From Escherichia coli (GTDB lineage Bacteria; Pseudomonadota; Gammaproteobacteria; Enterobacterales; Enterobacteriaceae), in NCBI RefSeq assembly GCF_024223415.1, contig NZ_CP100500.1: a stretch of 64,000 nucleotides of DNA; one strand, 5' to 3'. The translations under genes and the position numbers were made by a program. The notes under the pieces were generated by a model. The model had not been told where the DNA came from, did no database searches, and worked only from the letters and a program-made list of their open reading frames with translations. Below are positions 59,708 through 61,891 of the stretch, in pieces; the stretch's first letter is position 1; each line of letters opens with the position of its first letter.

Positions 59708-60128
59708 GCGTCAGCCCAGCCAGGCTGCCAGTTGCCGTCCCTTTTTAAAATCATGTGCATTACCGATACAGGCAACCAGCGCACAGGCTGTTGTGGGACC
59801 AACTCCTTTTAGCTCCATCAGCTGTTTAATACGGATATCATCCCTTGCAGCCTCATGAAGACGGTGGTCATGAGACGATATGAGTTCATTTTACTCTGAC
59901 AGTTCGCACAACAAACGGATGAAGGGTCATTCCACTGCCCCTGGACAGTATTCCCTGCTGGATTTTACGCACGTGCCTTATCCCCACAGGCAGCAGCAGA
60001 CCAAATTCACTCAACAGCCCCCGGATTTCATTACGCAACGCCGTTCGCTCGCGGATGATTCTGGCCCGGACCCGGTATTCTTCCTGTAACGTCTGCTGGG
60101 ATTCCGATATGAAAACAACAAATCGCAT
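59708..60128 (-). pseudogene. IS110-family transposase remnant (frameshifted, truncated)
   Basis: Manual translation ...LMELKGVGPTTACALVACIGNAHDFKKGRQLAAWLG* matches IS110 C-terminal motif; adjacent fragment ...LRNEIRGLLSEFGLLLP in another frame. Confidence 0.5.
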
Positions 60129-60574
60129 GCCGGGCCTGCTGACGGCCTCACAGATGGCAGCTGCATTATTAGCGTCGTTTTTGTTACCTTTGAGATAAGA
60201 TTTGACAAGTTTCTACGGAATAATGCGCACGGTAGGCCCCATACGGAATGAGTTCCCGTGTCCAGAATGGGAAGAGCCACAGACTTCGATGCTGATGAGG
60301 CAGGGAGAAATCCCGGAGAAAAACGTCATCATGTGGGGAGGGCTCAGCGTTTTTCTCCGTACCACTATTCATTGTGATCAACGCCGTGGATTTGAAAAAC
60401 ATTTTTCGGCAAGATCGAAACCAATACGATTAATATTCATGACTGACTTCTCCACCAGGGAACTGGGTACATCTCAGTCTGGAACGTTGATGCCGTAAGG
60501 AGGAAGATGTCAATCACATCGGCCTACACGCGATGTTAGCTCAGATAGGCGAAACGTATCCGACATTACACTGG

Positions 60575-61891
60575 TTAAGACTTCGTCGATTTCTCAAAGC
60601 GGCGTAGTAACTGATTCCCACGCTCAACGGCGGTATCCAGCGCCTGCTGTGGCGTCTTCTTACCGGTCCACACGCTCTCAAGCTCTTCATCCACAATCGC
60701 TCTGATCTGCGGCATGTTGCCCAGACGTAGTCCTTTGGTGAACGGTAACGACGGTTTGTTCAGCATCTGACGTGTCGCGATATCCGCCCCTGGGTTTTTC
60801 TCATAAAAGCCCTGCTCACGGGTCAGGTCATACGCCGCTTTGGTGATTGGCAGATAACCGGTTTTCTGATGCCACTCGGCAGCATTTTCTGGCTTCGCGA
60901 GGAAGTCGAGGAACTTCGCCACGCCGGTATACGTTTCTTTATCTTTGCCCTGCATCACCCACAGGCTGGCTCCGCCGATAATGGCGTTTTGTGGTGCATC
61001 TTTCGCGTCAGCGTCGTAAGGCATCATGCCTACGCCGTAGTTGAATTTGGCGTACTCGCGAATGCTGGCAAGAGAACCAGAAGAGGCAGTCGTCATTGCG
61101 CAATCACCGTTATAGAACTTCTCGGTGGATTCATCCTTACGCCCGACGTAGCTGAAATCGCCTTTCTTGTTCATCTCTTCGAGCATGGCGATGTGTTTCA
61201 CCTGCTCCGGCTTGTTGAACTCCAGCACCGCATCTGTGCCGTCAAAGCCGTTGTTTTTGCTGGCAAACGGCAGACCGTTCCAGGCGCTAAAGTTTTCCAG
61301 TTGGATCCAGCCCTGCCAGCCGCTGGAGTAGCCGCACTTCATACCGGAGGCTTTCAGTTTCGCGGCATAGTCCGCCAGATCCTGCCAGGTTTTCGGCGGC
61401 TGTTCTGGGTCTAATCCTGCTTTCTTGAAAGCATCTTTGTTGTAATAGAGAACAGGAGTCGAGCTGTTGAACGGCTGGGAGAGTAAGTGTCCCGTTTTGC
61501 TGTCGGAGTAGTAGCCTGAAACCGTCGGCACAAACTGCGACTCATCAAAGTTAATCCCCGCCTCTTTAAACACGTCATACACCGGTTTAATGGCTTTCGA
61601 CGCCATCATGGTGGCGGTGCCAACTTCATAAACCTGCAAAATAGCCGGAGCGTTACCGGTACGAAATGCTGCGATCCCCGCACTTAAACTCTCTTCGTAG
61701 TTGCCTTTATAAGTCGGTATAATTTTGTAATCCGGGTTTTCGGCGTTAAAACGTTGGACCAGAGAATTCACCTCTTTACCCAGTTCCCCTTCCATAGAGT
61801 GCCAGAACGGAATGGTCGTCACTGCCTGTGCATTCCCCATTAACGTCAGTCCGAGCACCAGTGCTGAAGCTGTATAATGTAACGGTTTCAT
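60575..61891 (-). CDS. ugpB: sn-glycerol-3-phosphate ABC transporter periplasmic binding protein UgpB
   Basis: 438 aa; near-identical over its length to recalled E. coli UgpB ([11 protein letters not shown]...[17 protein letters not shown]...). Confidence 0.9.

Follow-up and report, generated by a model that had tools for sequence, protein, structure and literature searches.

What does an intact ugpB gene signify when nothing else of the ugpBAECQ operon stands beside it? The question is raised by a 64,000-nt stretch of an Escherichia coli genome (assembly GCF_024223415.1, contig NZ_CP100500.1; hereafter the window), in which ugpB is followed by the remains of an insertion sequence (IS) of the IS110 family. 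Our study suggests that this feature is most probably a fossil gene-capture scar in a horizontally transferred island, reconstructed here in several steps, and not damage to the operon of the host. The original prediction had described ugpB as intact but stranded, abutting a frameshifted IS110-type remnant with unrelated island genes beyond it, and had seen in this a rearrangement breakpoint rather than a simple insertion. This description was borne out: the open reading frame (ORF) of 438 aa is complete, no ugpA lies past the IS, which is moreover a truncated chimera. The remnant runs further than first drawn, as it spans 59185..60519 and position 59708 falls inside it.

The gene and its immediate flanks occupy three intervals of the window:

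60575..61891, minus strand: ugpB, an intact, extra, island-borne allele of 438 aa (ORF, Pfam, alignments to K-12 and to structure 4AQ4)
61892..62052, minus strand: fragment of the ugpB promoter and 5' untranslated region, 161 bp, strongly diverged from the homologous Pho-box region of K-12
60520..60574, minus strand: first 55 bp of the ugpB-ugpA spacer, with one unit like a repetitive extragenic palindrome (REP) and the first 8 bp, GTAGGCCG, of a second, inverted REP (spacer alignments, REP consensus)

The orphan protein is equal in length to the UgpB of K-12 and 97 % identical to it. SBP_bac_1 and SBP_bac_8 domains were identified using Pfam (E 1e-38 to 1e-43), and the protein aligned end to end with the E. 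coli UgpB structure 4AQ4 (residues 22–438, E 1e-281); it therefore has both the periplasmic type-I solute-binding fold and the full-length similarity of a UgpB. Trp169 and Glu66 (mature numbering), which are ligand-contact residues of UgpB (10.1101/529602), are identical to those of 4AQ4, within the motifs GWQGW and YEVG, and the signal peptide and ribosome-binding site are kept. Length, domains, signal peptide, ribosome-binding site, both ligand residues and the Pho-box region are common to the orphan and to the UgpB of the K-12 ugpBAECQ operon, the periplasmic sn-glycerol-3-phosphate/glycerophosphodiester binding protein (4AQ4, 6X84). However, no cognate ugpA, ugpE or ugpC is encoded alongside the orphan, and searches by tblastn and blastn across the window detected no ugpA, ugpE, ugpC or ugpQ at the protein or the DNA level. 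In K-12, ugpB lies between livF and ggt together with ugpAECQ, and ugpA follows 97 bp downstream, whereas the orphan is located on an island without adjacent ugpAECQ, and an IS110-family pseudogene takes the place of ugpA. Homology to the K-12 ugp region is limited to 60520..62052 (1533 bp, 93.4 % nucleotide identity), which comprises 161 bp upstream, ugpB and 55 bp of spacer. By all sequence criteria except operon context, the predicted protein is UgpB.

The relationship of this gene to the resident operon was examined across 5426 complete E. coli genomes. Native loci were sought with a chimeric query, in which the island ugpB fragment was fused to 600 nt of K-12 ugpA, and a contiguous native ugpB-ugpA arrangement was found in 5422 genomes; island carriers therefore hold both copies. 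Among the matches listed, each carrier chromosome displayed a second ugpB match. The best native locus reached 95.4 % over the chimeric query, from which we infer that the island-derived part would be at most ~94 % identical to any native E. coli allele, and as no native match exceeded 95.4 %, no sequenced E. coli carries the island allele natively. As judged from these comparisons, the ugpB of the window is an additional, foreign and divergent copy, and the resident operon is not broken.

The orphan gene travels as part of a block of constant order (remnant of a pemK toxin gene, ugpB, IS110 remnant, phytase-like gene), which was present in ~200 of the 5426 genomes, or about 4 %; a 4-kb stretch was found at an identity of at least 99.7 % in 194. 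The flanking DNA on the pemK side occurs in E. coli only in ~210 genomes, all of them block carriers, and no pemK region without ugpB, which would represent an empty site, was found in the species. The exact orphan UgpB protein is recorded in 5224 blocks of a public assembly collection, for which ten distinct contexts were listed. All ten run from ugpB to the IS remnant to the phytase-like gene and never to ugpA, one of them (L088) with an added IS2-like element that parts ugpB from the phytase-like gene; in another (L092), IS1 lies 31 bp from the ugpB start codon. The block adjoins setC/yicL, at the selC site, in AR_0085 and tRNA-Phe (pheV) in 64EVA. Its neighbours on the islands are carbohydrate-uptake genes, an ireA-type TonB receptor and IS debris, and many carriers come from poultry or extraintestinal infections. 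No carrier differs from the others at any of the three block junctions; the rearrangement therefore arose a single time, predating the spread of the block through E. coli, and did not take place in this strain. The setting resembles that of the tRNA-associated islands of extraintestinal and avian pathogenic E. coli, such as PAI I APEC-O1 with ireA and AGI-3 of BEN2908 at selC (PMC3349570, PMC11537424), without being equated with a named island. A literature search found no description of a ugpB copy, an IS110 remnant or a phytase-like gene on such islands.

The downstream breakpoint (J2) falls between 60520 and 60519, within the second REP of the spacer (GTAGGCCG^GATAAG). A REP pair is seen in the ugpB-ugpA spacer of K-12, E. 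albertii, Pseudocitrobacter faecalis, Citrobacter and Klebsiella; the second REP reads GTAGGCCGGATAAGCG...CATCCGGCA, and the spacer REP fits the consensus listed in PMC11208160. K-12 and the GTDB representative of E. coli have unlike REP arrangements in this spacer. The native spacers of K-12, E. albertii, Citrobacter and Klebsiella run on as GTAGGCCG-GATAAGCG, whereas homology in the window ends after GTAGGCCG and the left end of the IS then opens with ATGTGATTGACATC. A related IS, carried by a Klebsiella plasmid (L086) and sharing 66 % identity with the remnant across the left end and the N-terminal half, has the identical left junction, GTGTAGGCCG followed by ATGTAATGG (starting ATGT...), and its right end is followed by GATAAAGCATTTATGCCGCCATCCGGCA, the other half of a REP. 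The L086 element is a simple insertion at the same REP position, in agreement with a CG core, and the putative insertion site of the IS is GTAGGC[CG]^GATAAG.

Such a site would agree with the habits of the family, as IS110-family elements insert site-specifically, often into REPs, and are guided by a bridge RNA (PMC11208160, PMC1525189, PMC12288879). The REP-targeting elements IS621 of E. coli and ISPpu9 and ISPpu10 of Pseudomonas putida have DEDD and Transposase_20 domains and a left end at a fixed REP position, as does the element in the window. Unlike these three, the copy described here is dead, is a mosaic of two lineages, lacks a right terminus and has an IS1111-like architecture, and its insertion point lies four bases away from the CT core of IS621 (ATCAGGC[CT]AC; ATCAGGCCTAC).

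Two IS110 lineages, here termed A-type and B-type, can be distinguished within the remnant:

59185..60519, minus strand: IS110-family remnant, whole; decayed and chimeric
60441..60519, minus strand: left end of the IS, 79 bp, A-type, immediately adjoining the REP half-site; shares ~80 % identity with the corresponding end of L086
59439..60440, minus strand: mosaic transposase pseudogene (Pfam; frameshifts and stops), the N-terminal half A-type to ~59823 and the C-terminal half B-type from 59822 down
59185..59438, minus strand: non-coding DNA at the right end of the IS, B-type, with 91 % identity to an IS of an IncFII plasmid; bounded by junction J3, between 59185 and 59184

Both IS110 domains, DEDD_Tnp_IS110 (PF01548) and Transposase_20 (PF02371), were found when the transposase was scanned as a frame-corrected translation. 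An intact recombinase ORF is lacking, as the gene contains at least four frameshifts and at least four in-frame stops, and RefSeq marks it as a pseudogene in homologous loci. The N-terminal 200 residues are ~50 % identical to A-type and 36 % identical to B-type (IS1618/IS5708-like, e.g. L084) transposases. Over the C-terminal 134 residues, identity to B-type is 87 %, compared to 29 % over 130 residues, or 54 % over 39 aa, for A-type. All other IS110 DNA matches in E. coli begin at one point (~59822; query 737–741), at identities of 75 % to 91 %. The lineage switch in the recombinase lies at the boundary of the DEDD and Transposase_20 domains, and the left end of the element goes with the N-terminal domain and the right end with the C-terminal domain. 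This mosaic recombinase may exemplify natural modular exchange in bridge recombinases.

The ends of the element do not match each other. L086 carries a 12/13 inverted repeat (ATGGACACCTCCC / GGGAGGCGTCCAT), whereas in the window the A-type left repeat is without a partner and the B-type right repeat stops after GGGGAAGCC. On the right side, the cut falls within the subterminal inverted repeat and removes the last ~39 bp of the element: past the point at which the window diverges, four B-type copies from different contexts go on for that length, through ...GGGGAAGCCCTTATAGTACAA...CCCC, and for this reason 59185 was rejected as the true end of the IS. The target is not restored on both flanks, as the left junction lies at the REP, but on the right the region preceding the phytase-like gene stands where the other REP half would be expected. 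End lengths of 79 bp on the left and at least 254 bp on the right fit the IS1111-like group, in which a short left end is paired with a long right end (PMC11208160). A search against Rfam 15 for bridge RNA or other RNA gave no meaningful match. The long right end of IS1111-type elements encodes the bridge RNA. On its sequence, the remnant is thus not a simple insertion but a mosaic, whose ends do not pair and whose right terminus has been lost.

The donor of ugpB was Escherichia-like, as divergence at synonymous sites (dS) between the orphan and native Escherichia ugpB alleles is 0.20–0.26, close to the value for E. coli and E. albertii, and reaches 0.8 or more when the orphan is compared to other genera. 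Native ugpB is itself unusually polymorphic in E. coli, with a dS of 0.205 and only 3 aa changes between K-12 and the GTDB representative. From the anatomy of the junctions, the following course of events would account for the locus. In a donor with an Escherichia-like ugp locus, an RNA-guided, IS1111-like IS110 element would have inserted into the second REP at GTAGGC[CG]^GATAAG, splitting ugpB from ugpAECQ. A second event inside the IS, either recombination with the other IS110 lineage or deletion, would then have replaced everything downstream, leaving a chimeric IS with non-matching ends, its right end ~39 bp short and fused to the region upstream of the phytase-like gene. The pemK toxin gene would have been cut independently, by an illegitimate junction lying 161 bp upstream of ugpB. 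The block then entered E. coli as one unit, and it now resides on selC/pheV islands of ~4 % of genomes, beside the intact native ugpBAECQ. In the last and least certain step, the orphan UgpB would probably still be made under phosphate limitation, given that the signal peptide, ribosome-binding site, Trp169, Glu66 and the diverged Pho-box region are kept, and it could supply the resident UgpAEC with substrate.

Whether the orphan has a function of its own is the subject of the alternative that survives best, in which UgpB is a selected working gene: an extra binding protein for UgpAEC, maybe with shifted specificity, or a bile-responsive chaperone of the periplasm that acts apart from the transporter, perhaps working with the secreted phytase-like phosphoesterase next to it to scavenge phosphate. 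We consider this unlikely, although several features speak for it. The ugpB ORF is intact while the neighbouring IS and pemK sequences are full of frameshifts, and the ligand residues, signal peptide and ribosome-binding site have been kept. UgpB has been found to possess chaperone activity independent of transport, and its overexpression leads to bile resistance (PMC8144458). The literature found reports no phenotype for the orphan. Wide recurrence of the exact protein, in the 5224 assembly blocks, might also be seen as a sign of selection; however, copies that are at least 99.7 % identical reflect recent spread, and their conservation is uninformative on selection. In some strains, moreover, IS1 lies 31 bp from the start codon (L092) or IS2 stands before the phytase-like gene (L088). 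A homologue of the phytase-like gene is found beside phoX elsewhere, but ugpB and the phytase-like gene of the block are of different origins with a dead IS between them.

Substitution patterns bear on the same alternative from both sides. Eleven substitutions are specific to the island protein (A12V, A16T, D42N, A45V, V58I, Q67E, N68S, A189S, N276S, P381S and V398A); all are conservative, and the sites concerned are invariant in E. coli and E. albertii, with Pseudocitrobacter matching except at position 16. When singleton changes on the island branch were compared to the sum over three native branches, 12 nonsynonymous and 17 synonymous changes were counted against 10 and 60 (Fisher p=0.0066). 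The resulting ratio of nonsynonymous to synonymous rates (omega) for the orphan is ~0.20, which is far under neutrality and significantly below 1 (binomial p=2e-5), as a working gene would display, yet it is 3–4 times the native value and thus more relaxed. Purifying selection on the orphan is visible in these counts, but it appears weakened compared to the native copies.

The promoter fragment is 82 % identical to that of K-12, whereas native Escherichia promoters are 92–97 % identical among themselves (K-12 against E. albertii, 92 %); for K-12 against Pseudocitrobacter the value is 84 %. Promoter drift has thus equalled or exceeded that at synonymous sites, which speaks against a working gene. 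A Pho-box-like CTGTCATCTTTCTAACAC in the orphan promoter aligns with K-12 TTGTCATCTTTCTGACAC. A scan with the strict Pho-box consensus gave no match in the orphan promoter, although the K-12 box shares the same four mismatches and would fail too, and a scan for sigma-70 promoters and terminators gave nothing above chance. Taken together, these data describe a still-translatable gene under putatively weakened constraint, for which a working role is possible; the faster protein change and the drifting promoter argue that the orphan is mostly a passenger under weakened selection. A bolder proposal, which we hold to be slightly more doubtful than the working gene at large, sees in the island UgpB an accessory factor maintained by selection in poultry and extraintestinal E. 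coli, either as a bile-responsive chaperone or through altered organophosphate binding with the phytase-like esterase, its promoter having been rewired off native Pho control.

A second binding protein beside a complete transporter encoded elsewhere has precedents. HisJ and ArgT share HisQMP, and LivJ and LivK share LivHMGF. In those pairs, however, the specificities are distinct and have been demonstrated, whereas the orphan UgpB is 97 % identical to its resident counterpart and derives from the truncation of an operon.

Several points weigh against the reconstruction of a gene-capture scar. The target site is backed by one independent insertion only, that of L086, and the plasmid set contains no closer A-type relative: none exceeds ~50 % protein identity, and a match at the DNA level was found only in one Klebsiella plasmid family. 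No intact copy of the mosaic IS was found, and formation of the chimera at this locus therefore cannot be told apart from the prior existence of an active chimeric element. Among the matches listed in the donor search, the only Escherichia were the representatives of E. coli (97 % aa identity) and E. albertii (96 %), and metagenomes, scanned twice for a junction of the island allele with an uninterrupted REP, gave no match. Neither the 5426 E. coli genomes nor these scans yielded a donor locus with the island allele, an uninterrupted REP and ugpA, and the steps of insertion and downstream replacement are for that reason reconstructions. Finally, the low omega of the orphan may mostly date from its time in the donor operon.

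The original prediction had also allowed for an IS-mediated deletion, which implies that the genome's own ugp operon was broken; neither this nor an error of assembly held. Under the former, the resident ugpBAECQ would have been truncated and the cell left without its Ugp permease, which would account for an IS remnant, and not ugpA, following ugpB. This is highly improbable: the allele is only 93–95 % identical to native E. coli ugpB (93.4 % at the nucleotide level to K-12), its flanks are the DNA of selC/pheV islands and not livF or ggt, the native ugpB-ugpA locus is present in 5422 of the 5426 genomes, and carriers among the matches listed have at least two ugpB places. The idea that ugpB was joined to island DNA by faulty assembly or scaffolding has only the odd gene order to recommend it and can be dismissed, as ~200 genomes finished independently of one another, and thousands of assemblies, share the junctions.

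On either side, the scar is bounded by genes of other origin:

62053..62364, plus strand: remnant of a PemK/MazF-type toxin gene, its N-terminus cut by junction J1 (between 62052 and 62053) so that it begins ...TWWIEFDP, and frameshifted further on
57737..59184, minus strand: gene for a phytase-like esterase (PF13449) of 447 aa (ORF 57737..59080), with a 104-bp upstream region

The Pfam match to PemK_toxin covers profile positions 6 to 59 of 109, and RefSeq marks two PemK fragments in homologous loci. A complete toxin and antitoxin are not present, as the first few codons and the antitoxin gene are gone and the upstream DNA has been replaced by the ugpB fragment. No IS end was found at J1. The phytase-like gene was found in 228 genomes and is always linked to the block; it is followed by an RpiR regulator and then a phosphotransferase system gene. 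Plasmids also carry the phytase-like gene together with part of the IS; these copies were considered as ancestors of the block and rejected, as they are bounded by IS1 and match the island variant in which IS1 adjoins the phytase-like gene. A 92.7 % homologue of the gene lies beside a PhoX alkaline phosphatase gene on a plasmid of a pigeon E. coli (L100 5094..8694), and a perfect CTGTCAT half Pho box is located upstream of the phytase-like gene in the window. A phosphate-scavenging theme is common to ugpB and the phytase-like gene, possibly by coincidence. Beyond the pemK remnant, an IS66-family element (63477..64000, with a tnpA-like ORF from 63562) breaks an IS3-family pseudogene compared to AR_0085, and colinearity with that genome ends at 63477.

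Elsewhere in the window, a Shango defence system was identified (SngA 21025..23352, SngB 19705..21021, SngC 17510..19708). Directly downstream of it are two large ORFs on the minus strand, of 1583 aa (12783..17534) and 743 aa (10555..12786), which gave no Pfam or PADLOC match at E<=1e-5. The larger overlaps the sngC ORF at its start by 25 nt, and the two ORFs look co-operonic with Shango as a result. Further defence genes adjoin Shango: on the minus strand an AbiEi/AbiEii pair (23536..25262), and on the plus strand a PDC-S06 AAA_13 ATPase (25419..27614). At the left edge of the window, a type II secretion cluster (42..8433, plus strand) encodes a secretin, a GspE-like ATPase and a GspF-like protein, and this interval had no match to the AR_0085 island or to the adjoining AR_0085 chromosome that was compared.

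In summary, the locus belongs to a known kind of event, in which a gene fragment is stranded by a site-specific IS and carried within a pathogenicity-island mosaic, and the example itself is new; no description of this ugpB copy was found in a literature search. For annotation, the finding means that thousands of E. coli assemblies contain a 'ugpB' that is an additional, island copy and should be read neither as the Ugp locus nor as loss of the operon in pan-genome studies, typing and metabolic models. The extra UgpB, confined to ~4 % of E. coli with numerous avian or extraintestinal isolates among them, is a candidate for a role in fitness during gut passage, although the evidence leans towards a passenger. 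The mosaic recombinase would represent an exchange between lineages at a domain boundary, and the locus as a whole records how REP-targeting IS110 elements, with their bridge RNA, can split operons at intergenic REPs and seed the capture of gene fragments into islands.

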